This document shows positions 29,699 through 64,000 of a DNA stretch of 64,000 nt, piece after piece. The DNA comes from Marsupella aquatica (lineage: Eukaryota > Plantae > Marchantiophyta), in the NCBI GenBank assembly GCA_973895155.1, contig OZ316892.1, positions 1,925,223 through 1,989,222 on the forward strand. Reading direction: 5' to 3'. A program made the translations under genes and the position numbers. The notes beneath the pieces were generated by a model. The model ran no database searches. It saw only the letters and a list, made by a program, of their open reading frames with translations, and was not told where the DNA came from. The first letter of the stretch is position 1, and each line of letters opens with the position of its first letter.

Positions 29699-31870
29699 TC
29701 AGGGATCTAGGCCTGTGGAATCGCCTCTTCTAGCTGCTGGTGGTAGCCGAGCTAAAATAGTTTCAGTGATTCCATCTGCATGGAGGCCCTTCTCTTTCAT
29801 CTCCTGCCAGAGATTCAAAGCAGCAGGCACACGACCTTGTTTGATAAGATTATCAATAACGAGGTTATAAGTCACCACATTGGGCTGGCACCCAACCTTT
29901 TTCATCTCTTGGAACATATAGAGGGCTGAATCAACCTTCTCTGCTACGAAAAAACCATCAATGAGGCTGGTGTAAGTGACTACGTCTGGAACGGTTCCCC
30001 TCTTCTGCATTTCCAAGAAGAGTTCACATGCAGAATCAATTTTCTTTACTTTCCCAAGACAGCTGATGAGGACGTTGTAAGTTACTCGGCCTGGCGTGCA
30101 GCCTGCTTCTGCCATTTCTTGAGCAACCTTGGAGGCAGTGTCTATTTGCCCTGCTTTGCATAGCCGGTTAATCATTATATTGTATGTACAAATATCTGGA
30201 TTGACGCCGAGGTCTTTCATTTCTTGAAATAGTCCCAAGGTCTTGTCAATCAAGCCCCGCTTCCCAAAACAATCCAACATATTGTTGAAGATGGTGGCAT
30301 CCGGTTTCAGATCTAGACGTATCATCTCCTCGTACACCTTACACACTTCATCGACCTTGGAAGCTTTGGTAAGACCCCTGATCATAATTGCGTAAGTAAC
30401 CTTATTGGCAATGCAACCTTTGGCTGCCATCTGCTCAAATAATTGGGAGGCAGCGTGAACATCACCCTTCTTCACAGCCCTGTCCATGATACTATTGTAG
30501 GTAACAGCATCAGCAATACCCTTGGCTCTATCGAAAAGCTCCATAGCTCCATCCCAATCATCTGCTCTCGCATATGCATCTATCAGGATGTTATAGGTTA
30601 CAATACCTGGTTGGTATCCTTTACTCACCATCTCATTTACGAGCTGAACTGCGTCAGCTACATTGCCTCTTCTCCCATACGCATGAATCAAACTATGATA
30701 CGTGTACGAAGTGGGCCTCACTCCTGCAGCAATCATGTCTTTGAAGATCCTAGAAGCTGCACTTAAGTAACCCTTCTTACCAAGACTTCCAATTACAATG
30801 GTGTATGAATACACATCTGGCACGTAACCTCTCTTAGCCATGTCGTTGAAAATATTGCTCGCTGTCGTCACCTGACCGACCTTGGCGAAGCCATCAATGA
30901 GCATATTGATGGTAGTGTTGTCAGGAGTAAATCCAGCTTCCATCATCTGCATGTACACTTCAGCACCTGTTTTCAGGTTGCCTGATTTGAGAGCTAGATG
31001 AATTATGGACTTGTATGTGAAAAAAGTTGGCGACCATCCGCACCCTTTAATTGTTTCCAACGTTTGGACAGCTTCATCCAGCAATTGGGACTGAGTGAAG
31101 AAGCCCACGAGGGCATTATTAAATGCGAGATTCTTCTCGCATCCGTCAGTGTCCATCTGCTCCATAAGATGCTTCACATCCTCGTGCTTCAGACAAGCTC
31201 CTGCACTTGCTAATATACGAGTGTAAACCGCAGTTGTGTGCTTGTACTCCGGCTGCGTCTTGGCCCACTGGAAGAATTTGAATGCCAAATCCGGGTGAAC
31301 TTGACGCTTCAAAACCTCGTAGACCAAGTATGGGGTCAGCTGAACTTTCAGCTCCGTGAGGGCTTTCTCTGTAGAATCTGTCCATTCTTCCCCACCGTGC
31401 AATATGTTGCAGAGACTCCCTATGATCTTCGCTTCCACGTACCCTGGATCCTCTTTCCTCCTATTATAGCCCCTTCTGTAGTAAACTCGCAAGTCCACAA
31501 TCTCGTTGCTACCCTTGAGCCTCCGCCAAAGATCATCTTCATCATGTTCTCTGTCATTAGAATGTTTGGGCGCTGCTGCTGCTGTAATCTGCCCTGAGAG
31601 CACCTGGGAGAAGCATCTCCCACCAATTCCACGAAGACAGCTCATCCAGTTTCTGGCAATTCTTTGAGGGAGGGGATGGACATTTCCTGAAAACCCTAAC
31701 GTTTGTCTGCCATGTAAAATCGAGTCTCCTGTGCCACCTTCCCATGCTGCTGCTGGACACGATGAAAAGAAGAGAGGCACCGGAACCTCGCTAATATGCC
31801 TCGCTGCTCTCTTCTCGGAAGCTCTGGAAAGACTCCAGGCATAAACTACCCGACTCCTCATCTTCATCAA
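29699..31870 (-). CDS. P-class pentatricopeptide repeat protein, probably organelle-targeted, single exon
   Basis: 723 aa with a tandem array of 35-aa PPR motifs (e.g. VYSYTIVIGSLGKKGYLSAASRIFKDMIAAGVRPT, VVTYTSLIDGFFVAEKVDSALYMFQEMKKVGCQPN), an AFKFFQWAKTQPEYKH motif and an R/S-rich N-terminus. No E/DYW domain. Confidence 0.95.
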   Translation of the reverse strand: MMKMRSRVVYAWSLSRASEKRAARHISEVPVPLFFSSCPAAAWEGGTGDSILHGRQTLGFSGNVHPLPQRIARNWMSCLRGIGGRCFSQVLSGQITAAAAPKHSNDREHDEDDLWRRLKGSNEIVDLRVYYRRGYNRRKEDPGYVEAKIIGSLCNILHGGEEWTDSTEKALTELKVQLTPYLVYEVLKRQVHPDLAFKFFQWAKTQPEYKHTTAVYTRILASAGACLKHEDVKHLMEQMDTDGCEKNLAFNNALVGFFTQSQLLDEAVQTLETIKGCGWSPTFFTYKSIIHLALKSGNLKTGAEVYMQMMEAGFTPDNTTINMLIDGFAKVGQVTTASNIFNDMAKRGYVPDVYSYTIVIGSLGKKGYLSAASRIFKDMIAAGVRPTSYTYHSLIHAYGRRGNVADAVQLVNEMVSKGYQPGIVTYNILIDAYARADDWDGAMELFDRAKGIADAVTYNSIMDRAVKKGDVHAASQLFEQMAAKGCIANKVTYAIMIRGLTKASKVDEVCKVYEEMIRLDLKPDATIFNNMLDCFGKRGLIDKTLGLFQEMKDLGVNPDICTYNIMINRLCKAGQIDTASKVAQEMAEAGCTPGRVTYNVLISCLGKVKKIDSACELFLEMQKRGTVPDVVTYTSLIDGFFVAEKVDSALYMFQEMKKVGCQPNVVTYNLVIDNLIKQGRVPAALNLWQEMKEKGLHADGITETILARLPPAARRGDSTGLDP

Positions 31871-34557: not shown

Positions 34558-36017
34558 ATGTTTAGGAATCAGTATGATACAGACGTTACGACATGGAGTC
34601 CTGCGGGCCGACTGCACCAGGTGGAATACGCAATGGAGGCAGTGAAGCAAGGGAGTGCCGCGATAGGGCTGCGGTCGAAGACGCATGTGGTGATGGCCAC
34701 GGTGAACAAGGCGTCGTCGGAGCTGTTGTCACATCAAAAGAAGCTGTTCAAGATCGACGACCACATCGGGATTGCCATGGCCGGGCTCACGGCTGACGGG
34801 CGTGTGCTGTCTCGCTACATGAGGTCGGAGTGCATCAATCACAATTTTGTGTACGAATCTCCTCTTGCCGTCGGTCGCTTGGTGGTTCAAGTAGCCGATA
34901 AAGCACAGGTTGGTTGAATTGCCCCTCTGTTTCCCTTGTTACAGTCTCGGGATCTTCCCGTGGGTTTTGGCTTGCTTGAAATGTGATGCTTAGCAGGTTG
35001 CATTCCCAAAACCCCACGTATATGAGATCCCAGGTTGGGCAGCAGTCCTAAACCAGCTTTGTGTATGGAATAAAATGTTTTCGTCTGATGTGGGTACGTA
35101 TGGTGCATGCTATGACCTCGTTAGGGTTGGACCTCTTCCTGAGACCCATTGCAAACACGCGACATGACAATCATAGAAGGATCAGTTAGATTATATGATA
35201 CTCCCGTCACTTTTTGTAGTTGAATCACATATCTCTTCGGCAAATTTCCATTCTTACCACCTTGGTGGTTGCGAAAAAAATGAGCGTGAGCTTCCGATCG
35301 TTGAAGGGGTTTTATATCTGTGTCCCTGGATATTGCAAAATTGGTTTCTGTTAATTTTGAAAGTTTTCAATGCTATTCAACTGAACAAATTGTTTCAGGT
35401 CATGTTTCAAAATGTCTTACCATGCTTTCCTTCGTAGGCTTTCTATGGAAGGACATGTACAACAGAGGCTGCATGGTTAATTCAATGTTTTTGTTCTTGC
35501 CTTCCAGGTTTGCACCCAGAGGTCCTGGAAACGACCCTATGGTGTTGGGTTATTGGTAGCAGGCATGGATGAAACTGGCCCTCATCTCTATCAAAATTGC
35601 CCTTCTGGAAACTATTTTGAATATCAAGCTTTTGCTATTGGATCACGCTCACAAGCTGCTAAGACATATCTAGAGCGCAAGTTTGAAACTTTTTCGGATT
35701 GTACAAAGGATGAGTTAATACGCCACTCACTGCTTGCAGTGAAAGAAACTCTACAAGAAGAAGAGTTGACTAGTGGAAACTGCGGGGTGGCTGTAGTGGG
35801 AATTAACGACAAATTCAAGATTTTAGATCCCAAGGAATTACAAGAATATATTAACAGCTTGGAAGAGGGGACCAAGGAGGAAGTCACTCCCATAGAAGAG
35901 GGTGCACCACCAACTGTAGAAGCTCCAGCAGAGCTCTTGCGCAGGGAAGGATCTGGGGGAGTGGAAGTCCCTGCAGACGGAGATGGACCGCTTCCCTATT
36001 GGCTGCATCTTAGCTAA
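34558..36017 (+). CDS. PAF1: 20S proteasome subunit alpha type-1 (alpha6); exons 34558-34908 and 35508-36017
   Basis: Exon 1 starts [34 protein letters not shown]. The phase-0 GT-AG intron joins ADKAQ to [19 protein letters not shown], followed by [17 protein letters not shown]. Confidence 0.95.
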
Positions 36018-36545
36018 TTTGCAATTCCTGGTATTTTAGTTAGCTATGCTATGCTATATGCTTGGGCATCATCTGGAAAGCCATTGTTGCCCACTAGCCT
36101 TTCTTCCCGGTAGACTGCATTTAAGTTAAATGGCAAGCATCAAGGTACATACTATTATTTGCCCACTTCACCTTTCTTCCCTAGTGGCTGCATTTTAGCT
36201 AAATTGCAATTCCTGGTATTTTAGCTAGCTATGCTATGCTATCTGCTTGGGCATCATCTGGAAAGCCATTGTTGCCCACTTGCTATTGGCTGCATTTTAG
36301 TTAAAATTGCAACAATCAAGGTACATACTATTATTTGCCAACTTTGCCTTTCTTCCCTATTGGCTGCATTTGAGCTAAATTGCAATTCCTTGTCTTTTAG
36401 CTAGCTATGATATACTATCTACTTGAGCATCATCTAGAAAGCCATTGTTGCCCACTTGCTATTGGCTGCATTTTAGTTAAATTGTAGCAATCTAGGTACA
36501 CATTATTATATGCCCACTTTGCCTTTCTTCCCTAGTGGTTGCATT
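35991..36545 (+). repeat. Tandem repeat, ~176-185-bp unit x3 (family C), overlapping the PAF stop codon
   Basis: cttcccta(t/g)tgg(c/t)tgcat recurs at 35991, ~36176, ~36352 and ~36527. An inverted partial copy lies at 55468-55613. Confidence 0.85.
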
Positions 36546-38959: not shown

Positions 38960-40183
38960 CAAATTTTTTTTATCCTCTTGCGCAACATTCCAACTATAAA
39001 AGAAAAACCTCCTTTGGAAGTCAACAACATGACATTCATTAGAGGTTCCCTACGGATGTTTTCCCATCCATTTGATAAAAGAGAATAACCAAAAGGTTTT
39101 GCCTCCTTCATGGTTTTGGTCATGTCTTTTGTAAGATCTTCATTAGTCTCCTCCAACAACTTCACTCGCAAATTTTGCATAATGGGAAGAGAACACCCAT
39201 TTACAATACCATTTGAAGTTTCATGTACTCGGAGGGGTCACTTCCACGGAAGTGGCACATCACGTTCAATGAAGTATAGGCCCATTTAAATGAGTGTGGC
39301 GAAAGATTTTCAAAGTTTGGTGAAAGAATACATAGGACATGTGTTATTGCCTGGTCAACTTTAAAGAATACATAGGCCTATTTAGTCGAAAGAAATATTT
39401 TCCTTAAAGTTTTTAGGGGTTTTTCAGTAAAAAATGTTAAAATTTAAAGAAAAAAAAAGATTTTGCAAAGAAATATAATTTACTTATAAGCTAGGGGGTC
39501 AAACCCTAAAATGTGGCATGCAATGTATGGCCCTCCATATAGTGATCCCCCGAGCTCATGTACAACTTCTCAAAAATAGATTTTGTAAAACAATGAATGC
39601 AAACCACTTGTGTAAAAAGCTTTTGCTCGAAGCTTGTCCAAATGTGCTCTGTAGAATTTGATAAACATCCATAATTGGGTTGGAAAGATTGCTTGCCCTA
39701 GCCGTATGAGTCCTATTTGACTCATCCTCCATTTGAAAATGGTTTGACTCTCATATGTGAATGCTTGTGAATTGGAATTTCCAATAGATGGCATGCGACT
39801 CCTTGCATCCCACAAAATATGGGTTCCATCCCTTCGTTGGTAGTTGATATTTGGTGAAAGTTTGATAACATTGTACATTTTGTTGATTTTATCCAACTCC
39901 ACATCACCATAGAGTCCTAGGCATGGTGATGCATTCCCTTTGATGATGTTTCCATCAAATGTGCCTTTACTCGTGTTGCATGAAAAATATTATATATTTT
40001 ATAAAACTTGCATTTTTGATAGATAAGGTTGACATCATTAGATATTAACGGTGCATCACATTGTTCAAAATATTTCCACGCTGTAGAAAATTTTGGACCA
40101 TGCTCATGCGAATGATTTGGTCCATGCCTAGGGACAGTGGAATGATATCCAAATTCATCAGACTCATCCTCATCAAAAGACAT
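38960..40183 (-). pseudogene. Degenerate hAT transposase 5' half (BED + start of DUF659), same family as 50895-53801
   Basis: MSFDEDESDEFGYHSTVPRHGP...WKYFEQCDAP matches MSDEEDSHETGYHSTTPRPGP...WRYFERCDAP, and GYSLLSNGWENIRREPLMNVMLLTSKG matches GYSLSSDGWENVQREPLMNVMLLTSKG. It has frameshifts, stops, a catalytic D>N change and a MITE insertion, and is truncated near 38960. Confidence 0.9.
39228..39554. mobile_element. 327-bp MITE nested in the dead transposase
   Basis: Imperfect TIRs ctcggaggggtcact / agtgatcccccgag, with an 8-bp TSD ttcatgta (39220-27) / ctcatgta (39555-62). Removing it restores colinearity with the intact transposase. Confidence 0.8.
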
Positions 40184-41726
40184 TGTTCTAAAGATAGATG
40201 TCTATATAGAGTTCAAACTCTGTAGTCTCTACCATCAACATAATGAGAGTGTCATCTCCGCTCCAACACACACTGAATTTACATATATACAACATTATAA
40301 AATAAATATTTACTCCATGTCAAAAGATCATATATTTTGCACATACCATGAAAGCAAACAACAAACACATTAAACAATCACATTTTGCAACATTTTTAGG
40401 TCCCTAAAATTTATAACGAGTATTTTTCTTCCCTTTAATCTTTGGTTGTAACAAATAAAAAAGAGTAGGACATTTTGATGAGTTACCACAAGCCGAGCCG
40501 AAGCTCCAAGATTGCGCACCATCATTTCCCAATCTCTCATACTTGCGTACATCCCTACTTTGTCCTACGTTGTAAAATATGTATTACTAACAATCATTTA
40601 TTTATGAAGCAAAAATATTTTCAAAGGAATCGTGACACACATGTGAAATATCACAGACTAAGCCAAGGCTCCAAGCCAACGCACTTGAGTTTCTCTATCC
40701 TTAAATTTTTCCGCTTTGTAAAACAATAACGTCAAGTTGTTAAGGCAATATAAAAAACTTTTGTACAAAATATCCCAAGCCGAGCCAAGGCTTCAAGCCT
40801 GCTGGTACAAGAATTCTTATATATCCCTCCATTTTAGAATAGACATAATGGAATGTATATGATAAAACCAATACTAAAACAAAGAAAATTTGCAAAGCTT
40901 ACCTCTTTGGTTTCTATCCTGGGTTCTCAACAAGTACAATGATAGAAATTCTATAACATCTCCCCTTTTATCCCCTTGCAATGACCCCTCTTCCTGGCAA
41001 ATGAGGCCTTTCAAGCCCTAATTTATAGGCAACCCCGCCCTAATCTTGGCCGCCCCGACCCTTAAACCTAATCCCGGCCGCCCTGACCTTTCCCGGTCCT
41101 CTTATTCTCGGCCCAACCCTCCCCGACCCCTGACCCGCCCCGCTCCGCTCCCCGACCCAGCTCCTCGCCCCGACCCTGGCCCCCGCCCCATCCCCCTCGG
41201 CCCTGCTTCCACCCCAACCCCCGCCCCTACCCCAACTTTACCGGGAGAGTCCGGGACCGGGCCGAGAGACTTTGGGACAGGGCCGGGAGGATTAGGAAGA
41301 GTCCAGGACTGGGCCGGGAGGGTTCTGGAAAGTCTGGGACCCGGCTGGGAGGGGTTGGGAGAGTTCGGGACCAGGCCGGGGATGGGTTGGGAATTTTTGG
41401 TCCCGGCCGGAGAATATAAGGGAATACTGGACAAATAGACCATTTTTGGGCAAACAAACTATCATTTGTCATGTCGGACTTCCCCTTATGGTACATCAGT
41501 GTTTCATTCTCCGAACTCCAATTTATTTTAGTGATTATTTTAATTTTTAATTTGGTCCTCCAATGGCTGGCTTCCTTGTACTTTTTCTATGTGCAAATTA
41601 CTTGAACCCCCCATATATATTCCATTTAATGTTTCGATGTAGAAATTGATTGAACCCGTAGACCCCACTCCCTGTAAGACACGATCAATTGCCCTCGCAT
41701 TGGCTCCAACATTCATTGATAATTTT

Positions 41727-43285: not shown

Positions 43286-43734
43286 TGTTTGGCTCGTTTG
43301 GTGAATTGTGTCCTGTATATTTTCATGTAACATCAACCAAGGAAGGCAGAAAGAAGACTGCAAACATACAAATCAACATTGGCAAAAGCATCTGTTGACG
43401 TGTTCTTCATGGGGAGATGTTAAATTCGTGTCCATCTCAGAAGCAAATGGATCTGGATATTAAGCAGTACGTGATCCACAATTGTCACTGGTTTAGATGA
43501 ACATAATGAGATGCTACTCAATTAACACAGATACTCCACCAAAGAAAAACTACATGATTTCCCGAAAGGCAATTATCATCCATTAAACTTGAAGTACTCT
43601 AGTATAACGAATCTCGGCTGCTTGCAGCTGGCCGAGTAACTTCCTCATCAAGACCAATTCTCATCAGACAGCAGCCAAATCCCGGTTTGACCTTGCCCGT
43701 CAAACTGGGCGTTTGAGAGCGGCAAATTGACAAC

Positions 43735-44210
43735 CCGGCACCCGGGTTCGGAAGCAGTCCGGGAAAGGAAACGTCCGGTTCGGGGTTCGGGTTCGGGAGG
43801 AGGTTCGGGAGGAGGTTCGGGTGGGGGTCCGGGTGACTAATCGGGTCCGGGTCCGGGGCGGAGGCGCTCGGTGGGGGCTCGGGGTGCGGTCCGGGTGGGG
43901 TTCGGGTCCGCTCGGTGGGGGTCCGGGTGGGGTTCGGGTCCGGGTCCGAGGGGTTCGGGTTCGGGAGGTACGGGGGGTTCGGGTGGGGTCCGGGCCCGGG
44001 GCGGAGGCGCTCGGTGGGGGTTCGGGGTGGGGTCCGGGTGGGGTTCGGGTCCGGGAGGCCGGGGTGGGTCCGGGTGGGGATCGGGGTTCGGGGTTCGGGG
44101 TCGGGTTCGGGGTTTGGAAGTTCGGGGTTCGGGATTGAGGCTCGGAGAATTAGGGTTTCGCGATTTAGGGTTGGAGGATGGGGCCGGCCGGGAAAGGGTC
44201 GGGGGCTCGG
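43735..44210. repeat. Left subterminal GC-rich repeat array (GGGTTCGG / GGGTCCGG units)
   Basis: Dozens of ggggttcgg/gggtccgg units, strongly G-skewed on the + strand, followed by telobox-like attagggttt (~44149) and a (GGA)n tract at 44268-44341. Confidence 0.9.
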
Positions 44211-44456
44211 GAGAGGATAAAAGGAGGAGATCCCTCCTCTCCCTCCTCATTTTCGGTTTTGCAGAAAGGAGGAGAGGAGGAGAGGAGGAAGAGGAGGAGG
44301 AGAGGAGGAGGAGGAGGAGGAGAGGAGGAGGAGGAGGAGGCAAGTGTTTGGTTTTGGTTTTTATTTTTGATTTTTGGTTTGTTTTTATTTGTTTATGTTT
44401 TGTTTTGTGATTTTTTAAGTTTTTTTTGTGTTTTAAACCTTAACCTTAGAGCCAAA

Positions 44457-44810
44457 TGGAGGGATATAAAGAAACACTTGTACGCGCACGCTTTGAGCCT
44501 CGGTTCGGTTTGCGATACTCCGTACAAGAATTTCTTAATATCACCTTAACAATTTAGTCTCCTTTGTTCATTAAGTAAAACATTTGCGGAGATAGAGGAA
44601 TCCATGTACGCATGCTTAGAGTTTCGGCTTGGTCTGCGATACTTTGCATGGATACCACGATTCGCCGAGAATGTTTTTACTTGAAATACAAATGAGTGTT
44701 AAGTTATAGACACCAAATCACATATGTCGAAGCAGGAATATAACAACTTTGAAAGAAAAGAACACTTTTGTGCGCATGCTTTGAGCGTCCACTCGGTCTG
44801 CGATATTTCA
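44457..44810 (+). promoter_or_regulatory. Left internal subterminal block with three copies of a ~40-bp motif, mirrored at 53890-54246
   Basis: tgt(a/g)cgc..gctt(t/a)gag...cggtctgcgata at 44477, 44605 and 44769. 44457-44555 is a close reverse complement of 54150-54246. A regulatory role is inferred. Confidence 0.6.
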
Positions 44811-45032
44811 CAAGTGTTGTCTTTCTCTTTTATTATTGTTATATAGAAAGGTAATTAAAATCATGTGTGCAATAAAAATACATAATGCATGGGAGAAATA
44901 AATCGGGAAAAGATAATAACAATACGACTTGTAATTTTCAGGTTGGTCGTTGAATCCTTATTGGAAGGATTTTATTTAAATCCCGGTAAGATCTTGTTCC
45001 TCCCTCACATATTCCTTTTGTGAAGGGAAAAC

Positions 45033-46688
45033 ATGGTCATCGAAAATTTTAGTTTAGAGTATAGGCAAGTGTTGGAGATGATCACAAAACATGTGAATGA
45101 GGGATATGAGCCGAATCTTGTTGCTCTGGATGCATTGAAGAACGCTCGAAACACTCTCGAACATGCTAGGAATTCTAGCAAAGTGGCCGGGAAACGAAAA
45201 CGGAAGGGGGCAAACGAAGAGGCAAAACAGGTTCGACACAATGTGGTAGTGTCGATATGGAAAGAGATACTTTATCGCTACACTCAACCGAAACAGTATG
45301 GGGTGGACGGGTTCGAGAGGGAGTTCACAAGACACGGAGAGAAAGGATACAAGAACTTTCTTGGTGAGATAACCCGTTGTATGCGGGAAAGTGTACAAAA
45401 GGAGGACAATTTCACACGAGAGCAAATGAAGTCATTTGAAGATGAAACTGAGAAACCGGGAGGATTTCTGGAAAATTTGGCACTCAACTCGGAGAAGCAT
45501 GTTTGGGATAATTTGGCAGCCAAAGTGGAAGAGGGTGACACTACATTGCTTGGAAACCCCGGGATGTACACACACAAGAGAGAATTGCTAGTGAAGTGGA
45601 GTAAGGAGTTGGCAATGGCAAAATCTGATAGCAATGTCAAATATGCTAACGAGATTGTGCACTTTGGGGATGTCAGCATCAAAAGTGCTCGAAAAGGAAC
45701 ACGTCCATCGCGTGTAGTTCCAGAGGTTAGGAGTATCCATTTTCTTAAACCTGAGCAGGTGCACAACACACGTCGCATTGGGAAAGGAATCCAAGGAGAG
45801 GTATACACTTGTCGTATATTACATTGTCCTCTCATTCCCGTCAACGTGACCTTAGTCGCAAAGCGGTTCAAGGATGGAGACAAGCATAAGAGACGAACTG
45901 ACGCATTACAAGAAGTGCTTATGGGAGGACTGAATCATAAGGGAATCGTTGGAGCTCTTGCGTTGACTATTGAGGATCCGCCAAAACTTATTTACGATCA
46001 CTATAATGGAGGTGACTTGGGTAGCTTTATTGATAAGTGCGGCATATCATCAAAGAGCAAGGGGAAGGCACAGATCACGACAGACCTTGATTTCAAGTTT
46101 ATTTCGGAGAAGAAACTCTTGTTGGAGAACCGGTTGGGAATCGCCTTGGCTTTGCTGGAGACACTGCAATACTTGCATGAGCATGATCGATTTCATTGTG
46201 ATCTTCACTTTGGAAACATCCTTCTTCATTTCGATCACGAGCACGATGTGGCTATTAAGGTGTATGTTGGTTTATGTGATTTTGGCTTGTCTAAGCATAA
46301 ATCACAGTGCAAATTACCAGCTAATCGGATGTGGCCCACAGCAACAGAAAAAGCAGCAACATACCAAAAACAATTTCCACAGTTGGCTCCGGAGCTTGTT
46401 CAACCTACCCCTATCGAGTTTAGTGAAAGTACCGATATATATGCTTTGGGGAATATTTTTGAGACATTGTTGACAGAGAATTGGGATGGAATGTCTAAGG
46501 GTTCACGGTTTTTGGGGAGGGGTTGGAGTGCACAAGTGCATGGCCCCAAATTGGATATCATAATCCGTGAAATGATGGCCACGGATGCCAAGAAAAGAAT
46601 GGATTGTGCTTTTTGGAGTTTGAAGATAGTTCGAACGTTTCCAGATTGCACATTGTATTTGCACAACAGTCCATATCTTAGAGATTAG
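45033..46688 (+). CDS. Transposon-borne protein kinase, intronless, with basic NLS-like motif
   Basis: 551 aa with all core kinase motifs: IGKGIQGEVY (G-loop), LVAKRF (Lys), HCDLHFGNILL (catalytic loop), LCDFG, LAPE, TDIYALG. KRKRK lies near the N-terminus. Confidence 0.88.
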   Translation: MVIENFSLEYRQVLEMITKHVNEGYEPNLVALDALKNARNTLEHARNSSKVAGKRKRKGANEEAKQVRHNVVVSIWKEILYRYTQPKQYGVDGFEREFTRHGEKGYKNFLGEITRCMRESVQKEDNFTREQMKSFEDETEKPGGFLENLALNSEKHVWDNLAAKVEEGDTTLLGNPGMYTHKRELLVKWSKELAMAKSDSNVKYANEIVHFGDVSIKSARKGTRPSRVVPEVRSIHFLKPEQVHNTRRIGKGIQGEVYTCRILHCPLIPVNVTLVAKRFKDGDKHKRRTDALQEVLMGGLNHKGIVGALALTIEDPPKLIYDHYNGGDLGSFIDKCGISSKSKGKAQITTDLDFKFISEKKLLLENRLGIALALLETLQYLHEHDRFHCDLHFGNILLHFDHEHDVAIKVYVGLCDFGLSKHKSQCKLPANRMWPTATEKAATYQKQFPQLAPELVQPTPIEFSESTDIYALGNIFETLLTENWDGMSKGSRFLGRGWSAQVHGPKLDIIIREMMATDAKKRMDCAFWSLKIVRTFPDCTLYLHNSPYLRD

Positions 46689-46868
46689 GGTTTACACAAT
46701 TTTGTAAAGGTCACCTTAACGATTATATGTTTATTCATTGTATGTCAATTACAATGTTCTGCATTTTGTTGATAATATTCTATCAAAATTTGTCGTGAAT
46801 GCCCAAAATTGTGCTAAATGTGTTTGTACATTGTCAAATATCGCAGACCTTTTGTACACATCGCAAAC

Positions 46869-48827
46869 ATGGGACGATGGGAATTGTCTTCTGATGATGA
46901 AGACAAAGAGTTCACGACACAACATCTTACCATGCAAGATGGTCAAGGATCCTATTGTGACGATGAAGCTCTTCGTAATAATGTGTTGGATAATCTTACA
47001 ACCATTGGCATTCACTATGAGGCTAAACCCAAGGTTGATGGAACACCGGCGCCAAACACAAGAAGATGGGAAGATGAGGGTATGAAGGATGAATGGAGTA
47101 TATTAACGCCCAATGTAAATCCTCCCCATGACGAATGGGCCATGAATGCAAAGGAATTGGAGATGTTGATGCCAAAGAAAAACTTTTGGCCATTAGCACA
47201 ACAAGTTTTTCACGATCCGGATCTTTGGGCAACAAGATCATGGGCGCAAGAAAAATTCACCATGTCCAAAGTAACACATGCAGGTGTTAAATCACATTGG
47301 CAGCAACGATATCGAGAGTTTGCTCCACACAAAGCCCAAACAAAAATGAGTTCCATTTACCCTCCTTTTATCCGATGTCTGATTGCTGAATTCATTCTCA
47401 AGTGGAAGGTGGATTACCGTTGGGAAAACAATGCTGGCAAGCTGACTCATCAGGTGCATCCATCAGTGGTTGCGATTGCAACGAATAGGAATACAACTAT
47501 TGCAAAGGACCCTTCAATGGAGACTTCCAACAAGGGATCCAAAAGAAAGCTAGATGACATTGGGGAGGGATATGCGCATGAGAAGGGGAAAGCGGCTGTA
47601 CTTCCTCGAGTCTCCATGCCTGACCGTGCAGCACCACCAACCAATGTGGAGTCAACGCACACCAAAAAACCAATCCTTGTAGGTGTTGGGAGTAGAACTC
47701 CACATGCAAAGAACAACAATGTTACTGATGCTAACAAGGATAAGTTCAACCTGCACAACATATGCAAGAGCTTGGGGGCAGATGTTGCAGAGGTGATTGA
47801 GACAAATCTCCGCACGAAGTATGTAGTGGAGCTATGTGAATGTGGCAGCATCGAAAAGTTCAAGTCACAATTGCAACAAGCTGATATAAAGATGAGATCA
47901 CTTGAGAAGAAGCAGAACGAGCCGACGACCAATTCGGAAGTGATGTTGTACAAGTGTCAATTGTTTGACAAGATGGAAGAAATCAATAAGCTGACAAAAC
48001 AACTTGCTGAAAAAGAGCGTCAATGCAATGAACTGGCACGACTTGAGGAGAAGGACAAGATCATTAATGATCTTAAAAGTGAACTTGCAACGCAAGCAAT
48101 CATCATATCAAATCTTCATGAAGAGGTGCAAGAATTTAACAATGATGCTTTGGGGATGAGGTCAAACAAAGGGCAAGGTGAATTATCGTCGCCAAATTTT
48201 GTTAACATGCAAATCATAGATCCTACAGGGCACAACAACCTTTTTCCAGATGTGGAGGTTGACGCGGAAGGTATTGATAGGTTTTTTGATAAGTGGAAAA
48301 AGGATGAAACTATGACAGCATTTGTTCGTGAAAAGGATGACAAGTGTACTTGGTGCCTATATCCTTGGGGCCCTGAATCTGTTTCCATGTTGGGAACCTG
48401 CGGTCATATATGGCATTATGCTTGCTTGTCTAAATGGTTGAAGAAAAGCCGAAAATGTTGGTGTCGCACACCATTTCATGAACGCGAGTATGAGCAACGA
48501 GGATTGTTGAAGCAAATGCCATCAATGGAGACTCAACAAAACACTGAAGATATGACTGAAGATATGACTGAAGATACTATACCGGCGATGCAAATAGATG
48601 AAACTCCCATTGAACATTTCATAATCAATGAATATAATTTGTCAGATGGGGAATTTGACAGGTTGTTATTCAGTGGTCGACTCGATGAGTGGAAACAATA
48701 TGCGGCAGCCAACCAGCCATCAATAGATGAGCAAAATTTGCAACGATCCATTCGGCGCCATCGACGATGTCAACAACAGGCAGAGGTGAAAACAGAAGCT
48801 GTTGACAATAACAACAAAAGGAACTAA
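46869..48827 (+). CDS. Transposon-borne coiled-coil + RING-H2-like protein (putative E3 ubiquitin ligase), intronless
   Basis: Open frame 46818-48827 with first ATG at 46869. Heptad-rich EEINKLTKQLAEKERQCNELARLEEKDKIINDLKSEL and CTWC-x14-CGHIWHYAC-x9-CWC RING-H2-like motif, plus SKRKL NLS-like motif. Confidence 0.8.
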   Translation: MGRWELSSDDEDKEFTTQHLTMQDGQGSYCDDEALRNNVLDNLTTIGIHYEAKPKVDGTPAPNTRRWEDEGMKDEWSILTPNVNPPHDEWAMNAKELEMLMPKKNFWPLAQQVFHDPDLWATRSWAQEKFTMSKVTHAGVKSHWQQRYREFAPHKAQTKMSSIYPPFIRCLIAEFILKWKVDYRWENNAGKLTHQVHPSVVAIATNRNTTIAKDPSMETSNKGSKRKLDDIGEGYAHEKGKAAVLPRVSMPDRAAPPTNVESTHTKKPILVGVGSRTPHAKNNNVTDANKDKFNLHNICKSLGADVAEVIETNLRTKYVVELCECGSIEKFKSQLQQADIKMRSLEKKQNEPTTNSEVMLYKCQLFDKMEEINKLTKQLAEKERQCNELARLEEKDKIINDLKSELATQAIIISNLHEEVQEFNNDALGMRSNKGQGELSSPNFVNMQIIDPTGHNNLFPDVEVDAEGIDRFFDKWKKDETMTAFVREKDDKCTWCLYPWGPESVSMLGTCGHIWHYACLSKWLKKSRKCWCRTPFHEREYEQRGLLKQMPSMETQQNTEDMTEDMTEDTIPAMQIDETPIEHFIINEYNLSDGEFDRLLFSGRLDEWKQYAAANQPSIDEQNLQRSIRRHRRCQQQAEVKTEAVDNNNKRN

Positions 48828-49330
48828 AACCAATAGTCTCTACATTTTGATGTTATTTTCATGTAGTTACTATTAGAGACATTTTGTTAAAATAGAAGCG
48901 GCATATCCTCTTTGACAATTATTTTCAACTTGTAATTGGTAAAGAGATTTTGGAGTGACATTACATTGCATATCTCGATGAGTACATATATTTTTCATTG
49001 GGGGCATGGCGTTGCCTTTTGGAGAATGTGTATTTTCGTAAGAATATTCCATCCTCCAATCAGCCATAGGTTTTGGAAGCATATTGTCGGGCTCACAATC
49101 ATATTTTTGGACAAGTATGAGGAAAATAGACGTGATGAGAGACGGTAGCACAGTGGACTCAGGTACTGATCCTTCTCTGAAATCATTTCCAAAAGGAGAT
49201 CGTGTAGCACAATGAGTTCAACAAAGTCAACATCGCAATGGTTTTAGCCGCCCAAGTTGAGAATGATTTTGTAGAAGGATGTATACCTAAGTCCACTCAC
49301 TTTTCCTATCTTTCATAATTTTTTCCGCTA

Positions 49331-50660
49331 TTGCTGCTACGGCCAATGACATTCATGCACATGCGAACCGAGGCCAACGCCTACTCCTTTGCCCACCGCA
49401 AAAATGGGCCCTCATTACAACTTGAAGTTGAACGGAGTTTATTTGAGTACGAGAGAAGTTCTGAAAGCAAATGCACTCTCAGGTCAAATTTTCAGGTCCT
49501 TCGAGCAAAAAATTACTGAGTATGTCATCGATCCGTTGGTTTCACAACTTCTCTCGTACTCAAATAAACTCTGTTCAACTTCAAGTAGCGTAGCTGCTAC
49601 GACCAATGACATTCATGCGCATGCAAACCGAGGCCAACGCCTCTACATTTGCCTACCCCAAAAATGGGCCCTGATTAGAACTTGAAGTTGAACAGAGTTT
49701 TTTTCATTATGAGAAGGTTTATTCAAGCAATGGCACTCTCAGGTCAATATTTCAGGTCCTCCTGACTTTGTTATTATTGAATATGTTCGTGCTATGTTGC
49801 TTGAATAAATCTTCTGATAATGAAATGAACTGACCAATTACTGGAGTACGGCTACTACGGCCTATGACATTAATTTGCACAATTGCATGTTTATATCCTC
49901 TCCTTTCCGAATTCCAATTCGAGCTTGGACATCCTCTCGTCAGCTGGTCTCCACCATTGCAGTTGCTCTTCACGCAAACCAAGATAGCAGTCTCTAGAAT
50001 CCTCGAACCTATTTTATTTCAATGCATCATTCATAGTGTTTGAGGAATCCAGAGGTTCGCGTGAGGAGCAACTGAAAGGGTGGAGACCTGCTGACGAGAG
50101 GGTGTCCAAGCTCGAATTGGAATTTGGACAGGAGAGGATATAAACGGGTGAACTTTGACTTGAAATTGGTGACTGTATTTTGCGTCTGCATATCAATTTG
50201 GTGACCGATCTTGCGGAATCCCCGTGACCGTGTCTGATCATCATCATGACATTGCTCTCCTTGGCCACCAATGGGCCCTCATTACAACTTCAAGTTGAAC
50301 GGGGTTTATATGATTATGAGAAGGTTACTGATCATGTAGGCGATGTGTTCATTTCACAACTTCTCTCATAGTCATATAAACTCTGCCCAACTTCAAGTAG
50401 TGCAGCTGCTACGGTCAACGACATTCACCCACCCCAAAAATGGGCCCTCATTACAACTTCAAGTTCAACTAAATTTATTTTATTACGAGAAGGTTTATTC
50501 AAGCAATGACATTCTCAGGTCCAATAATGAGGTCCTCTCGAACTCATTATTATTGAATATGACGGTGCTCTATTGCTGGACTAAATCTTCGCATAGTGAA
50601 ATGAACTAACCAATTAATGGAGGGGGCTAGTATGGACTACGGCTGCTATGGCCAACAACA
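49331..50660. repeat. Internal repeat array of the transposon (~170-260-bp units)
   Basis: gctgctacg..caa.gacattca...aaaaatgggccct.attacaactt.aagtt recurs at 49331 and 49591 (260-bp period) and partially at ~50270 and ~50400. Confidence 0.85.
49889..50145 (+). ncRNA. Long fold-back hairpin, pre-miRNA/hpRNA-like
   Basis: Arms 49889-49980 and 50054-50145 (92 nt each) are reverse complements with 8 differences by manual alignment. An inner stem 49992-50008/50038-50054 follows a bulge. Four differences are G:U-compatible on the + strand. Expression is unknown. Confidence 0.6.
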
Positions 50661-50894
50661 AGGTACTTTGAAATAGTCAGTGTTGGAGATTTGGAAAACA
50701 TGTTGCGTTGGTGTGTCTCTATGGCATTCTCAAATGCAAATACAAATAAATTATTCAATCATTGTACAATAATAAACACACTGCAAGACAATACAATCAT
50801 GTTACAAAAAATATAATTGTTTATAATTTTGTCTATGTCAGATACGACAATATAAGAGTAGCAACACTTGATATTATCCTAATGAAAAGATGCT

Positions 50895-53801
50895 TCAAGG
50901 CTGTGAAGAGAAATTTCGTGCATTGTTGTTAAGATTTTTGCACAAAAGCGCATTCCACTCGTCTTGTTTGTCGCCCCAACTGAGTGGATCACGATTGTGT
51001 GACTGAACATTGTGCGATGTTTCTTGAAATGATGATATTCCTCGAAACCCACCAAGGCCAATAGGCCTGTTCGACGTATATGGATTCATGACACTTGGCC
51101 CTGCATACGCATTCAAGGGTGGACCTGCATGGTGTTGCCAGTTTGCATGTGGGTCGTTTGAAGTTTGACCTTCATGATTGTTGTATCCATGAAAAAAGGT
51201 TGATGTCCTTCCATTCGTCGAATGCCCTGCTGTGCCTGTGCGTTGCTCGTTGAAATATGGTCTGCTTGTGTCAACATCATTCGCAAAGTTCGACCAAGGT
51301 GACCTTGGTTGGGAAGGCATCACAAAGTTTCTGTCCAGTGATGCATCTTCCTCGTCTTGGATTTGCGATTCATCAATTGTAGGATACATCTCCAAATCCA
51401 TTTCATTCTCCCATTCCTCTGCAGCAGTGATGTCTGTATCTGGTGGAATACGAGTCAACAACTCACTATCCTTATCCAGTGAAAATCCGTGTAGCAATTC
51501 ATCAGCATCATCAATTGTATCATAATCTTCGACATCTTCTTCACCAAGAGCCGCACGTGTTGCATCGTACTCTTCATTGCTGCACAACTCCATGGAGATA
51601 GGTCTAGGTCCATCATTTGTTCTTCTTCTTTGGTCATAACGTTCATATATAAACGTATGCGGGTTTCGAACATTTGTGAGCCCTTTCTCTACCCTCATGT
51701 TTGTAAATACAAACACCAAATCTTTTGCTCGATCATTTGTCAATCGATTGTGACTTTTGGAATGTATAAATCCATACGAACTCCAGTTTCGCTCGCAAGC
51801 TGATGCACACACTTTTTGGTGTAAGATTCTTCGCGCCAGGATTCTCAAATATTTATAATCTGCACCATACGCATGCCACCACTCTGCTGGACTGACATTA
51901 CCTATACTTGATTGGGCGGCTCCCATCGCTATTGATGTGTTGGGATTTTTTTTTGGGGCGTCAATGGCTTGACTGTGGATGGCAGAAATAAGTTCTCTGA
52001 CGTCGCGATCATGGTTGATCCCCTCCTTCACCTGTTGTTCTGAATATCTAGCAATGTATTCACTGAAACCCCTGTAGAGTTCTGGATCTCCAGCGACATC
52101 TATGTCCTCATCAAAAAACATTTGGGGATTGAGATATGCTGCCGCTAGCATGAAATCAGTGGTAAGAGATTTTTTTCGATCCAAATACACTTTTAGTATC
52201 TTTGGTTTCAATACCTCTATTACCAATGGACAATCCTCCATGCTTGCTTTCAAAACATCAATCCCTATTTTCAAACTCCAATACAACCAACCTGATTGCG
52301 GAGAATCACCATCAAATTCTCGCAACATCTTGACCAACGGAGTAAAGAATTTAACTGTATCCTTCACTTCAACCCAAAATGTATCTTGCTGTATCCACAT
52401 TTTAAGTTCGTCTGCCTTTCCCCTCGTCATGTGTCCAGCTGATTTTGGTCGCAATGGAAGTCTATCACGATAAGACTGCCAATTATCATCAATGACCATC
52501 TGTTGTAAAGCTCCTCTTAGCTCCAACGCTCTTTGTGCCATTAGGAAATTGGTCGCAAATCTAGTTGCATTTGGACTCAACAGTTTTTTGTCAGGAGATT
52601 TTCTTGCAAATATTGCAGAAAGCTTTTGCGATGATGAAACTGCTTTTACTATCCACCTCAACCGTTTAAAAATCTTTTGGAATGGATTCTGTCCAGCATC
52701 ATCTAGCACTACACGCTTGTGACCACACATATCCTCTAGCAGCAAATTAAACACGTGGGTAGCACACCAGCTCCAAGTGACATGAGGATACTTTTTCATG
52801 ACTACCTCACAACCTGCTACGCGATTTGCGGGTGCTCCATCAGTTACAATTTGAATAATATGATCTGCACCAATATCCTCAATGTATTTCAACCACATGT
52901 CGCCAAGATATTTCCCATCTTTCTTGTCAGCTTGCGCAGCATTCCAACTATCCAAGAAGAAGTCACCTTTAGAAGTCAACAACATGACATTCATCAAAGG
53001 TTCTCTTTGGACGTTTTCCCATCCATCTGAAGAAAGAGAATACCCATAAGGTTTTGCCTCCTTTAAAGTTTGCGTCATGTTCTTTGTGAGATCCTCCTTA
53101 CTGTCTTCCAATAATTTCAATCGCAAACTTCGCATCGTAGGTAGAGAATAACCATTGACAATCCCTTTTGAAGTCTCTATGACTGCTTCTTGAAAAAAAG
53201 GATTATTTGAAACATTGAATGGAATACCACTGGTGTAGAAAGCTTTCGCCCAAAGCTTATCCAAATTTGTTCTATTTGGAATTTGATAGGCATCCATAAT
53301 TGGGTTAGGAAGATTTACTGGCCTATCTCCTTCCCTTACATGTGTATCATCCATGTCAACATAGTTTGACCCTCGTGTGGATGCTTGCGAATATGAACTT
53401 CCAACGCTTGGCCTACGACCTCTCACATCCCGCAAGATATGACTTCCATCTCGTCGTTTGTACTTTAAGGTCGGTGGAACCTTTATCACATTGTACATAA
53501 TGTTGATGGCATCCAAATCGACGACACCATAGAGTTGCATGCAAGGGGGCGCATCCCCTTTTTGGATGTTTCCCATCAAATGCGCCTTTGCTCGTGTTGC
53601 ATGATGAGTAACGTATGTTAAACAATACTTGCATCTTCGATAGATACGATTGACATCATGACATGTTGAAGGCGCATCACATCGTTCAAAATATCTCCAC
53701 ACTGGAGATTGTTTTGAAGGGTGTTCTTGCACACGAGTTGGACCAGGCCTGGGAGTAGTGGAATGATATCCAGTTTCATGCGAATCCTCTTCATCGGACA
53801 T
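50895..53801 (-). CDS. hAT transposase (BED zinc finger, DUF659, hATC dimerisation domain)
   Basis: First ATG at 53801 gives 968 aa. BED finger WRYF...CKYC...HATRAKAHL. Catalytic residues in SSDGW, VTDGA and ACERNWS, plus CATH (CxxH) and PAEWWHAYG...LARRIL. No internal stop. Confidence 0.95.
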   Translation of the reverse strand: MSDEEDSHETGYHSTTPRPGPTRVQEHPSKQSPVWRYFERCDAPSTCHDVNRIYRRCKYCLTYVTHHATRAKAHLMGNIQKGDAPPCMQLYGVVDLDAINIMYNVIKVPPTLKYKRRDGSHILRDVRGRRPSVGSSYSQASTRGSNYVDMDDTHVREGDRPVNLPNPIMDAYQIPNRTNLDKLWAKAFYTSGIPFNVSNNPFFQEAVIETSKGIVNGYSLPTMRSLRLKLLEDSKEDLTKNMTQTLKEAKPYGYSLSSDGWENVQREPLMNVMLLTSKGDFFLDSWNAAQADKKDGKYLGDMWLKYIEDIGADHIIQIVTDGAPANRVAGCEVVMKKYPHVTWSWCATHVFNLLLEDMCGHKRVVLDDAGQNPFQKIFKRLRWIVKAVSSSQKLSAIFARKSPDKKLLSPNATRFATNFLMAQRALELRGALQQMVIDDNWQSYRDRLPLRPKSAGHMTRGKADELKMWIQQDTFWVEVKDTVKFFTPLVKMLREFDGDSPQSGWLYWSLKIGIDVLKASMEDCPLVIEVLKPKILKVYLDRKKSLTTDFMLAAAYLNPQMFFDEDIDVAGDPELYRGFSEYIARYSEQQVKEGINHDRDVRELISAIHSQAIDAPKKNPNTSIAMGAAQSSIGNVSPAEWWHAYGADYKYLRILARRILHQKVCASACERNWSSYGFIHSKSHNRLTNDRAKDLVFVFTNMRVEKGLTNVRNPHTFIYERYDQRRRTNDGPRPISMELCSNEEYDATRAALGEEDVEDYDTIDDADELLHGFSLDKDSELLTRIPPDTDITAAEEWENEMDLEMYPTIDESQIQDEEDASLDRNFVMPSQPRSPWSNFANDVDTSRPYFNEQRTGTAGHSTNGRTSTFFHGYNNHEGQTSNDPHANWQHHAGPPLNAYAGPSVMNPYTSNRPIGLGGFRGISSFQETSHNVQSHNRDPLSWGDKQDEWNALLCKNLNNNARNFSSQP

Positions 53802-54374
53802 TGTTACGACTCTCAATGGTAAAAAAATAAAAGGGTTGATTCTTTTGATTTTGTGAATATAACAAATATAGTACAATGGGTTACTTTCCTGAATTATCGC
53901 AGACTGGGCCTAAGCTCAAAGCATGCGCAGGAAAGTTTCCCAAATTCTTATATTTGTCAACATCCCTACTTCAACCTATGTTATGTAATATCTATAACTT
54001 CACAATAGTTTATCTTTGAAGTGAACATATGTACGAGAAATAGTGATACCCATATGAAATGTCATAGACCGAGCCAAAGCTCTAAGCATATGCACATGGG
54101 TATCTCTTTACTCGCAAGTAGTTCACTTTCAAACAAAACAATGATGCAAAGTTGTTAAGGCGATATAAGGAACTTCTCGTACGAATTATCGCAGACCGAG
54201 CCGAGCTCAAAGCATGCGCGTACAAGAGTTCCAATGTATCCCTCCGATCTCTCCCTAATGCTAAACCACAAGAGAGAGAAACACAATGAGACTTTGGATT
54301 AGTGAAATGAATTAGTTATTCCTACTTATACTAAATCATCTACTTTTTATCCTCTCTTAAAACTCTTAATCTTT

Positions 54375-54985
54375 GATCCTAACCCTAATTGCGCCTCCCT
54401 TAACCCTAATCTCGCGCCCCTAACCCTAATCCCGCCTCTAACTCTTCCCCGGCCACCAATTCCCGAGCCCCGTCCCCGAACCCCGCACCCCGTTCCCCGA
54501 ACCCCGTTCCCCGCATCCCCGAACCCCCTACCCGAACCCCCTTCCCCGAACCCCCTACCTCGTTCCCCGAACCCCGTTCCCCGAACCCCGTTCCCCAAAT
54601 CCCCGAATCCCGGCCCCCCTTTCCCGCCCCCCCTTCCCTGGTTCCCCGAATCCTCTTCCCCGAATGCCCCCCGTCCCCGGTTCCCCGAATCCCGTCCCCC
54701 GGGCCACCTTTACCCCGGCCGGCCCCGGAAGGGTCCGGGCAGGGTTCGGGTGGGGGTCCGGGGAGGGTTTGGGTGGGGGTCCGTGGAGGGTCCGGGAAAG
54801 GCCCGAGAGTCCGGGGAGTGTTCGGGGGAGGGTCCGGCGAGGTTCCGGGAAAGGCCCGGGAGGGTCCGGGGAGGGTCCGGGAAGGGCCCGGGAGTCCGGG
54901 TTCGGGTCAGGGGGAGTTCGGGTTCAGGTCCGGGGTGCTCGGGAGGTGTTCGCGAAAGGTCCGGGGAAGTCGGGGTTCGTTCGGG
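54375..54985. repeat. Right subterminal region: telobox-like taaccctaat repeats, then C-rich CCCGAACCCC array switching to G-rich GGGTCCGG array
   Basis: taaccctaat x3 in 54379-54430, ccgaacccc units in 54470-54700, strand switch near 54715, then gggtccgg/gggttcgg units to ~54980. Confidence 0.9.
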
Positions 54986-55467
54986 AGAATCTTCAGGAAT
55001 ATACGTCAAATTGCGTGTTTTCGGGCCGTCATTTGACGATTTGACGTGCCCGACAAGGCGTCAAGGTGCCCGTCAGATTAAACCGGGAGCCAAATCCTGG
55101 GAAAGCTTGTTCATTGGATATCGTCTGCCACTTCCTACGCAGAGGATCGCTTTCCAACTCTAAGAGGATTATTTTAGTATGTCTATTAAGATTGTCCCTC
55201 ACCGTGTATAAACCCTGTGTAAACCTCTGTGACTTTTGCATCCTGTTACGACAGAGTGAAGATCTTAGAAGGACAGAGCACATCTCCAGTTGGAATTTCG
55301 AGGTCTAGGCCAGTCACTTGGAGATTCAACTATTAACCCTGGAAAAATGATCACAATTTATTCACCTCCAGTGAACTCGTGAGGGACTACTCATCAGCCC
55401 TCAGTTATCGGCCTACATTCTACTGTGCTTCACTGCAGTAGTCATCCAGCCACTTCACGTTTCCATT

Positions 55468-55613
55468 GGAGAAAGGCAAAGTGGGCAAATAATAGTATGC
55501 ACCTTGATTCTTGCGATTGAACTAAAATACCTGGAGTTGCAATTTAACTAAAATGCAGCCAATAAGTTAGAAAGGCAATGGCTTTCCAGATAATGCCCAA
55601 GCAGATAGCATAG
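55468..55613 (-). repeat. Inverted partial copy of repeat family C
   Basis: gaaaggcaaagtgggcaaataatagtatg.accttgat...aactaaaatgcagccaata...caatggctttccagat.atgcccaagcagatagcatagc is the reverse complement of the 36.0-36.5 kb unit. Confidence 0.8.
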
Positions 55614-56290
55614 CCGCAGAGGCAGAGGCAGAGGGTTGAAGCAAGCATTTTGTCCCGCTGCGGATAAGGGCCTCAGAATAATGAAGGGCGTGCGGGAGAG
55701 CGTTCGCTCATCGCTCATCGTCAGACATGGGCGTGCGGGAGAGTCTCCTCCTACATTGCTCAACTCCTTCCTTCTGTGGAGACGAAGCTCAGCTGAACGG
55801 GCACGAGAGTCTCCTCCATCGCCCAGCTTCTTGTGGTGTGGAGACGTGAGGAGAGCAGACGCTCAGAAGCTGTGAGCTTCTTGTGGTGTGGAGATGTGAG
55901 GAGAGCAGACACCGAGTCAGACAGTGAGTGAGTATACAGTAGGAGTCGACGAGGATTCGGGCGAACTGCTTGTCCTTTTGGTTGTTGCTTGCGTGCTCTC
56001 TCGCAGATTGCTTGCTTAGATACATACAATCCGCGGTGACATCAACACTTGTCGTCGTCATTTCCGGATTGGAGAGTTGGAGAGGTGGAGTGAGCCATCG
56101 GCCCTGTTTTCTTTTGGTCTGCTTGTGTTGTGGAGAGTGTCGGTCGCGAGTGTTGCGCTTCTGGGTTACAGCTTGCGGATGTGTGTTTGTGTAGTCCCCT
56201 GTGCTTGCTTTTCAGGAGAGGTCTAGGGAGGGAGAGGGTTTCAGGAACGCGACGGCATTGTGTCGGAGGAAAAGGGGAGGGCGCATCAAA

Positions 56291-63534: not shown

Positions 63535-63668
63535 AGTTAGAGCTAATCTTAGTCGCATACTAGGTTAGGTTAGTCATGCTGTGCATACTTTACATCCAAA
63601 CGATGTTTGCTTGGAGAGTAGGAACTCAGGCTCATTGTTACGGAGCCAATTGAGAGATAAGGAGAGCT
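63535..63668 (-). repeat. Dispersed repeat family A, inverted partial copy
   Basis: ctaggttaggttagtcatg...tgtttgcttgga.ag..ggaactcaggctcattgttacggagcca.ttgaga is the reverse complement of ~4050-4170. Confidence 0.8.
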
Positions 63669-64000
63669 TAACCAGGTTGCACTGAGAGAAAGATTGGGTT
63701 ATGAGACTCCAGGCACCCTTTGGCTAACCTAGCTCGGGCTCGGGTGAAAGTCTTCCTGTAAAAATGGCATAATATACTCATCTCTGTCTAAACACGCTAA
63801 TATGCAATCTCAATCTTTATTTGTCATGGTCTACTTACAAAATGTTATTCTAGCCAGAAGCCTGCCTCCTCAGCCATAGGATTATGGAGACATTTTTTCA
63901 TGAATATGAGATGGAGCTAAAGCTGCCACTATGCTTTTTCACGTCCGACCCGTCACTCCTCCTAGCTCACATGCTCCTTGAAATTCCATTATCAAGCCAA

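Follow-up and report, generated by a model that had tools for sequence, protein, structure and literature searches.

Why would a transposon of a liverwort carry a gene for a protein kinase, and on what would that kinase act? The question is raised by a 64,000-nucleotide stretch of the Marsupella aquatica genome (contig OZ316892.1, positions 1,925,223 to 1,989,222; hereafter, the window), in which a single uninterrupted, intronless frame at 45033..46688 on the forward strand encodes a 551-aa protein kinase. A sequence-only reading had proposed that this gene is encoded by a transposon and travels with it. Our data demonstrate that the kinase, a RING-finger gene and a transposase, all three intact, lie inside an 11.4-kb element at 43681-55087, and the kinase is very probably a dedicated transposon gene.

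The element is a hAT DNA transposon: terminal inverted repeats (TIRs), subterminal repeats, an 8-bp target-site duplication, transposase domains and dispersed copies were all found. The left TIR, CCCGGTTT (43681..43688, forward strand), and the right TIR (55080..55087, reverse strand) match perfectly over 8 bp and at 11 of the first 15 positions, and the identical 8-mer AGCCAAAT abuts them as the left (43673..43680) and right (55088..55095) target-site duplication. When the bases of the two 1-kb end zones were shuffled, 0 of 1000 trials produced comparable ends with a duplication. Copies exit into differing flanks exactly at the right TIR. The proposal of a transposon-encoded kinase therefore holds, with CCCGGTTT and AGCCAAAT bounding 43681-55087 and copies diverging behind 55087. 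Towards the interior, a G-rich array of GGGTTCGGG-type units (43777..44133), which also occur at the right end, is likely bound by the transposase, and the right side has GC-rich arrays of the repeat families D1, D2, D4 and D6 (54432..54946). Telomere-like TTAGGG/CCCTAA motifs lie just inside both subterminal arrays (44150-44170 and 54383-54429) and recur at 41016-41043 in a decayed copy of a related element; they are possibly telo-box promoter or Polycomb-recruiting sites.

The transposase gene (50895..53801, reverse strand) is intact and encodes 968 aa of the DUF659 type, with Pfam matches above cut-off to DUF659 (E 5.6e-30) and Dimer_Tnp_hAT (E 4e-9). Residues D259, D321 and E670 and a CxxH at 346-349 were assigned from established hAT motifs, on which the DDE triad rests. 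The second cargo gene (46818..48827, forward strand) encodes up to 669 aa with a coiled coil and a RING finger at residues 507-547 (Pfam zf-RING_2, E 3e-6, 27.8 bits against a cut-off of 27.3), and its product is predicted to be a ubiquitin ligase; none of six pattern matches in viral contigs encodes a relative of it. A motif of ~35 bp occurs three times upstream of the kinase (44458..44810, forward strand) and twice, inverted, upstream of the transposase (53890..54245, reverse strand), the former block being a 72%-identical inverted copy of the latter; these are likely putative promoter or binding sites. The RING and transposase genes converge, and two long, near-perfect hairpins in the spacer that separates them (49420..49586, z -12.8; 49889..50145, z -22.2) could yield small RNAs or serve as terminators. 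The first of them is composed of a spacer unit with copies at 49398, 49658, 50265 and 50434. No Rfam family was matched within 36000-58000, and a sigma-70 promoter scan, whose bacterial consensus is irrelevant to a plant host, stayed at chance level.

Short TIRs, the 8-bp duplication, subterminal repeats, DDE and CxxH residues and a dimerisation domain are shared with hAT elements that have DUF659-type transposases. Unlike the usual hAT, the liverwort element is 11.4 kb long, holds two intact genes besides that for the transposase and has duplicated upstream blocks that face inward. Its ends start with CCCGG, whereas those of Ac-like elements begin with TAG or CAG. Nearby, in the same orientation, lie the decayed remains of a related hAT (~38960-41400, ~70-80% identical), which correspond to its right part and contain broken transposase pieces, an upstream motif block and GC-rich repeats; we found no kinase match and no terminal repeat in them, and the left part is missing altogether. 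The three open reading frames of the element are depleted in CHG (0.68-0.77) and four of four host frames less so or not at all (0.84-1.26, a small sample), which fits long residence in methylated DNA.

Elsewhere in the window, host genes appear as single long frames: an AP-5 mu subunit (14742-16619), a VHS/GAT-like gene (20747-21925) and a PPR gene (29699-31867), the last two identified by eye. The AP-5 mu protein is 90% identical to that of Calypogeia fissa, 70% to those of Riccia and Marchantia and ~50-56% to those of most vascular plants, values that place the host among the leafy liverworts, near Calypogeia. A tandem repeat of ~176 bp at 35935-36545 has an inverted copy at 55470-55614, ~400 bp right of the element. 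Repeats with a 19-bp period occupy 367-750, and other dispersed repeats lie at 4041-5225, 13404-13705 and 63491-63669.

Four public sequencing runs from two studies contain the stretch, none of them recorded as RNA. Their contigs were aligned on 44450-55600, a range that leaves the left end outside, and the contig figures are drawn from 32 of 7070 pieces and 24 of 954 loose-end rows. In one run (X1), possibly made from the same sample as the window, the seven longest interior contigs among those drawn on show 23 differences from the window in 6043 bases (99.6% identical); a single 7-base indel beside the kinase stop codon leaves the protein unaltered. The interior contigs of X1 are 184-243 deep against 17.7 for the contig with the right flank, that is, 10-14 times deeper, and at least 10 contigs pass 55087 into unlike sequence (agreement 0.44; right end only). 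A run of the other study (X4) gave the same pattern, with interior contigs 305-427 deep at one to four differences and a mean of 61 in the last bin, which is flank. From these figures, without the use of summed depths, we estimate about 11-14 very young, near-identical insertions. The kinase contigs of X1 (184, 201 and 211) are as deep as the transposase contigs (214, 236 and 243), demonstrating that the kinase is a fixed part of this young, autonomous-looking family and does travel with the element, in copies that are 99.6% identical. Contigs also bridge the RING gene, which is intact and at full copy depth, to the end of the kinase. Further contigs in the public runs, of low depth and 85-92% identity, cover the kinase, RING and transposase genes, so older subfamilies exist. 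Seven of 17 kinase variants listed are silent, a selected set from 40 of 1053 variant rows that is unfit for dN/dS.

The kinase protein is laid out as a helical N-terminal domain, a basic linker with a conserved RPSR, a tyrosine-kinase-like domain and a conserved C-terminal tail. The kinase motifs follow at the expected spacing: GKGIQG (residues 250-255), the Lys277 of VAK, the helix-C Glu294, the catalytic loop HCDLHFGN (388-395; 46194..46217, forward strand), DFG (416-418), APE (452-454) and the helix-F Asp468. What had been read from the letters is thus correct in that all catalytic motifs are present, from the Gly loop to Asp468, and that the loop is non-RD, with His in the usual place of Lys. 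The KRKRK noted in the N-terminal region was likewise located, at residues 54-58 (45192-45206) within a variable loop of the domain. The absence of introns, also claimed earlier, is upheld by one frame and by full-length relatives that are colinear with the kinase over 99% of its length, so that no intron is concealed in it. Receptor domains had been said to be lacking, and Pfam matched none; an ectodomain or membrane helix of the plant RLK/Pelle type was not found in the protein. Pfam assigned residues 244-482 to PK_Tyr_Ser-Thr (E 2e-16) and Pkinase (E 1.4e-15), each with a score that exceeds the curated cut-off, and Pkinase_fungal (PF17667, FunK1) was absent from the matches at E up to 0.1. 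With its Lys, Glu, Asp, Asn and DFG retained, the kinase is predicted to be catalytically active.

The term "atypical protein kinase" in the sequence-only reading is wrong in the formal sense, as the domain has the ordinary eukaryotic protein-kinase fold. Membership of the atypical families was rejected: ABC1 scored 16 bits against a cut-off of 22.9, over just 46 loop residues, and neither RIO nor alpha-kinase was matched. The predicted model folds as an ordinary kinase, with a structural identity to TKL/TK kinases of only 16-21% and an N-lobe of low confidence (pLDDT < 50 at 296-361). A profile of the family against solved structures matched best Roco4 (E 4e-11), KIT (6e-9), B-RAF (1e-7) and CTR1 (5e-7), along with DDR and FLT3, and the 60 best of its 338 matches included no plant RLK; an Atlas search with the kinase domain returned generic kinase clusters only. 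We conclude that the protein is a divergent tyrosine-kinase-like (TKL-like) enzyme and not an "atypical" kinase. It shares the fold of the TKL/TK kinases (Roco4, B-RAF, CTR1, KIT, DDR), the best solved-structure matches of the family, but several features set its own clade apart from them, namely the non-RD, His-containing loop, the NGG hinge, the LLHF strand and a helical N-terminal domain that is private to it.

This family-specific N-terminal domain (residues 1-200; 45033..45632, forward strand) is predicted with confidence as an all-helical bundle (mean pLDDT 79.5). It had no Pfam family above cut-off, no Atlas match and no Foldseek match at E 0.001, and its best VIA fold match (Z 5.5, rmsd 4.7 over 96 residues) is no better than helical bundles give by chance. 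The lack of a match to the model does not show that the fold is new; our guess is that the domain binds a substrate or partner.

For the phylogeny, 59 kinase domains were picked from the matches, leaving aside short fragments and near-duplicates; the resulting unrooted tree, whose group names come from a faster, preliminary tree of 118 rows, includes no curated plant kinase family and no named RLK. Nine core rows (100/98) nest within a 29-row set (97/94) and this within a 35-row set (100/99), which is separate from 24 generic TKL, TK and other kinases. The 35 rows are all non-RD, and the NGG hinge, the LLHF strand and a GxxD(F/W)G motif occur in most of them; the residue in the loop is His in most and Ser, Thr or Ala in one branch. 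The sequence-only reading had left room for an ordinary host kinase family, and the phylogeny revealed no such relative among the matches and a separate 35-row clade. Three multi-domain TKL kinases with an HxDLH loop (P0082, P0123 and P0146), which presumably resemble TKL kinases of arbuscular mycorrhizal fungi, adjoin the plant clade with weak support (82/74), and their regrouping with other TKLs was not rejected (AU test, p-AU 0.34), a result that neither supports nor rejects the fungal origin suggested earlier. They share with the liverwort kinase the His at the catalytic-loop Lys position but fall outside the 35-row clade (100/99) and have repeated kinase domains. The viral origin that had been suggested was not substantiated, as 0 of 24 pattern matches in viral contigs encode a relative and the matches by fold to viral proteins, at 12-20% identity, are to generic kinases. 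A prokaryotic origin was likewise unsupported, with no relative among 181 pattern matches.

Relatives of the kinase numbered eight in a word search (48-73% identity) and 19 in a profile search; an exhaustive search of 1.84 billion representatives gave 140 matches, 13 of them with E < 1e-30, and no host parent gene of the kinase among the 140. A pattern scan of metagenomes yielded two relatives in 115 matches. Relatives at 46-73% identity retain every catalytic motif and the N-terminal domain, and the RPSR ahead of the kinase domain and a C-terminal LRD are conserved among them. A basic cluster of 5-9 Lys/Arg is kept in all 23 rows of relatives and query that span it (one further row only touches the stretch), and from this NLS-like feature the kinase is likely nuclear. 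The loop is non-RD with His in each of the 24 close relatives in which it is covered, a count that includes near-duplicates. The alignments thus indicate a family-wide trait with parallels elsewhere, and the earlier emphasis on the His loop as unusual has to be tempered, since the residue is not peculiar to the window protein (His in 39 and Lys in 58 of the 140 matches). Comparison with two relative loci, L001 and L002, the latter with two stops, gave a dN/dS of ~0.11-0.18, a rough value with dS near saturation. Judged from these alignments, the family is conserved and under purifying selection over the whole protein.

Organism names were attached to four of 28 clusters looked up: Calypogeia fissa, Riccia fluitans (twice) and the fern Adiantum nelumboides. 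By sequence match, the named relatives are thus all from liverworts and one fern. The closest is a C. fissa protein (83% over 271 aa), in agreement with inheritance within the liverworts. In C. fissa, 10 proteins of the family are named, on seven scaffolds of distinct length; they are one full-length protein and nine fragments, 37-98% alike, which form several subfamilies 52-83% alike to the window kinase. The fragments, together with the stops in L002, suggest birth and death as in a mobile family. A stable single-copy orthologue was not present among the named matches.

L001, a 5.8-kb locus that begins 544 bp upstream of its kinase and includes no element ends, is the sole relative with usable flanks. 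It contains an intact kinase relative (47% identity). The ~35-bp motif occurs twice ahead of this gene (68% over 149 bp, E 6e-9), and a DUF6729 gene and then a 653-aa frame with DDE/DxxH-like residues follow it. Whether the best matches sit beside hAT transposases had been put forward as a check; at this locus the relative does not, and the DUF6729 gene and the DDE-like frame stand there instead. Neither a hAT transposase nor a RING match was found in the 5.8 kb, the 3.6 kb behind the kinase have no RING gene, and no tRNA was detected in the locus. The two neighbour genes (2584-5521 of the locus) are probably one intron-split, Dada-like transposase. By eye, they show a CCCC-like cluster and D..D..DxxH..E in addition to the DUF6729 match, in a locus known without its element ends. 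Dada transposons are described as having a DDE transposase with DxxH and an N-terminal CCCC finger and as inserting in small-RNA genes (PMC3706591); by that description, the L001 neighbours look Dada-like.

Because its relative in L001 stands beside a non-hAT gene set, the kinase is apparently not bound to a single transposase. We therefore tentatively suggest, at somewhat less than an even chance, that the kinase moved between kinds of transposon, as TET/JBP genes do; either this happened, or another element sits inside the left arm of a hAT at L001. For the wider kinase family, transposon status is what we infer.

What, then, would the kinase do for the element? Given a dedicated transposon gene, a counter-defence directed at the host has somewhat better than an even chance. 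Our best explanation, with a probability just short of one half, is that the gene is a standing accessory of a young multi-copy hAT and that its product, a Ser/Thr kinase predicted to be active and likely to be nuclear, phosphorylates a host protein of silencing or defence. In this scheme, the kinase and the transposase would be jointly expressed via their common inward-facing upstream motif, and the basic cluster would direct nuclear import of the kinase. Non-RD kinases activate without loop phosphorylation, and the liverwort kinase may accordingly be active without phosphorylation of its activation loop. Phosphorylation of the host silencing or defence protein would then allow the element to be expressed and to jump. 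The target may also be marked for destruction by the neighbouring RING protein, in a phosphorylate-then-ubiquitinate route; as no RING gene lies behind the L001 kinase, this route cannot be obligatory in that arrangement. A host target is favoured because the kinase seems untied to one transposase and because known DNA-transposon accessory genes act on silencing.

Other explanations must be weighed against this one. The kinase could instead phosphorylate the transposase or the RING protein of its own element and so time or limit transposition. The upstream motif common to the kinase and the transposase, which makes their joint expression likely, agrees with such self-regulation, as do the young copies with all three genes and the long, acidic, Ser/Thr-containing tail of the transposase beyond the hAT dimer domain. 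We nevertheless consider it unlikely, given that a 47%-identical relative stands beside a different, non-hAT gene set in L001 and that most hAT elements transpose without any kinase. The absence of a RING gene behind the L001 kinase counts against the idea that kinase and RING protein act together as a selfish module, of the poison-antidote or drive type, favouring element-bearing spores or gametophyte cells. Two adjacent, co-directional and intact genes in each young copy would suit such a module, the haploid-dominant host would make drive effective, and fungal transposons bear kinase-domain spore killers; many broken kinase copies, however, persist in C. fissa, and we give the module only about a slim tenth part of our belief.

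A kinase that serves the plant, for example in immunity or stress, with the transposon merely spreading and diversifying it, would explain the long purifying selection and the relatives in Riccia and Adiantum, and non-RD loops in plant receptor kinases go with immunity. The liverwort kinase, however, has no receptor or other known domain, nine of the 10 C. fissa proteins are fragments and the named matches lack a stable single-copy orthologue, which leaves this benefit to the host improbable, if marginally less so than drive. Passive capture of a host gene as Pack-type cargo, intact merely through its young insertion, is the least probable reading and is already largely refuted. Copies that are 99.6% identical would be expected to keep an intact frame regardless of use, and intron loss is common among captured genes. 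But the protein is 47-56% identical to relatives with all catalytic residues retained at near-saturated synonymous sites, no host parent was seen among the 140 matches in 1.84 billion representatives, and several subfamilies, 52-83% alike, coexist in one related genome. Pack-type capture was accordingly rejected on a whole gene, a dN/dS of ~0.11-0.18 and the lack of a parent among the database matches.

Accessory enzymes in DNA transposons have been described before. Fungal DNA transposons carry TET/JBP and alpha-kinase genes, with alpha-kinase borne by IS3EU families; TET/JBP genes pass from one transposon superfamily to another, and an action against silencing has been proposed for them (PMC12730594). 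Anti-silencing genes of Vandal elements in plants are cited by the same source. Kinase cargo in DNA transposons is therefore already known. The liverwort element resembles the IS3EU and TET/JBP-bearing elements in keeping an intact enzyme gene, which in IS3EU lies opposite to the transposase in orientation. It differs from IS3EU in having a tyrosine-kinase-like enzyme and not an alpha-kinase, in being a hAT of a land plant and not a fungal IS3EU, and in its RING partner. Vandal (Mutator) of Arabidopsis is likewise a plant DNA transposon with its own accessory gene, for which anti-silencing is proposed or shown; the Vandal protein acts sequence-specifically on its own element, whereas the liverwort kinase would act on proteins, and no sequence relation between them is expected. 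By analogy with these systems, we infer that the kinase may be a transposon anti-silencing factor.

A broader version of the host-directed reading holds that a transposon-borne kinase family as old as the liverwort-fern split has moved between superfamilies (hAT, and DUF6729/Dada-like in L001) and, with RING ligases, phosphorylates and destroys host silencing components. Such a family would correspond, in plants, to the TET/JBP genes carried by fungal transposons, and we regard this version as doubtful, at under a third. No literature on the kinase family or on a kinase-RING hAT was found in open-licence PubMed Central and bioRxiv.

Transposon accessory genes reveal where host silencing can be attacked. 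If our preferred reading of a host-directed kinase is true, a kinase and a RING ligase in a young hAT would constitute a protein-level counter-defence that is new for plant transposons, within the literature scope given above. With intact ends, an intact transposase and near-identical sister copies, the question is directly testable in Marchantia. For liverworts and ferns more widely, a block of unclassified "lineage-specific" kinases in genome annotations is likely to consist of transposon genes.
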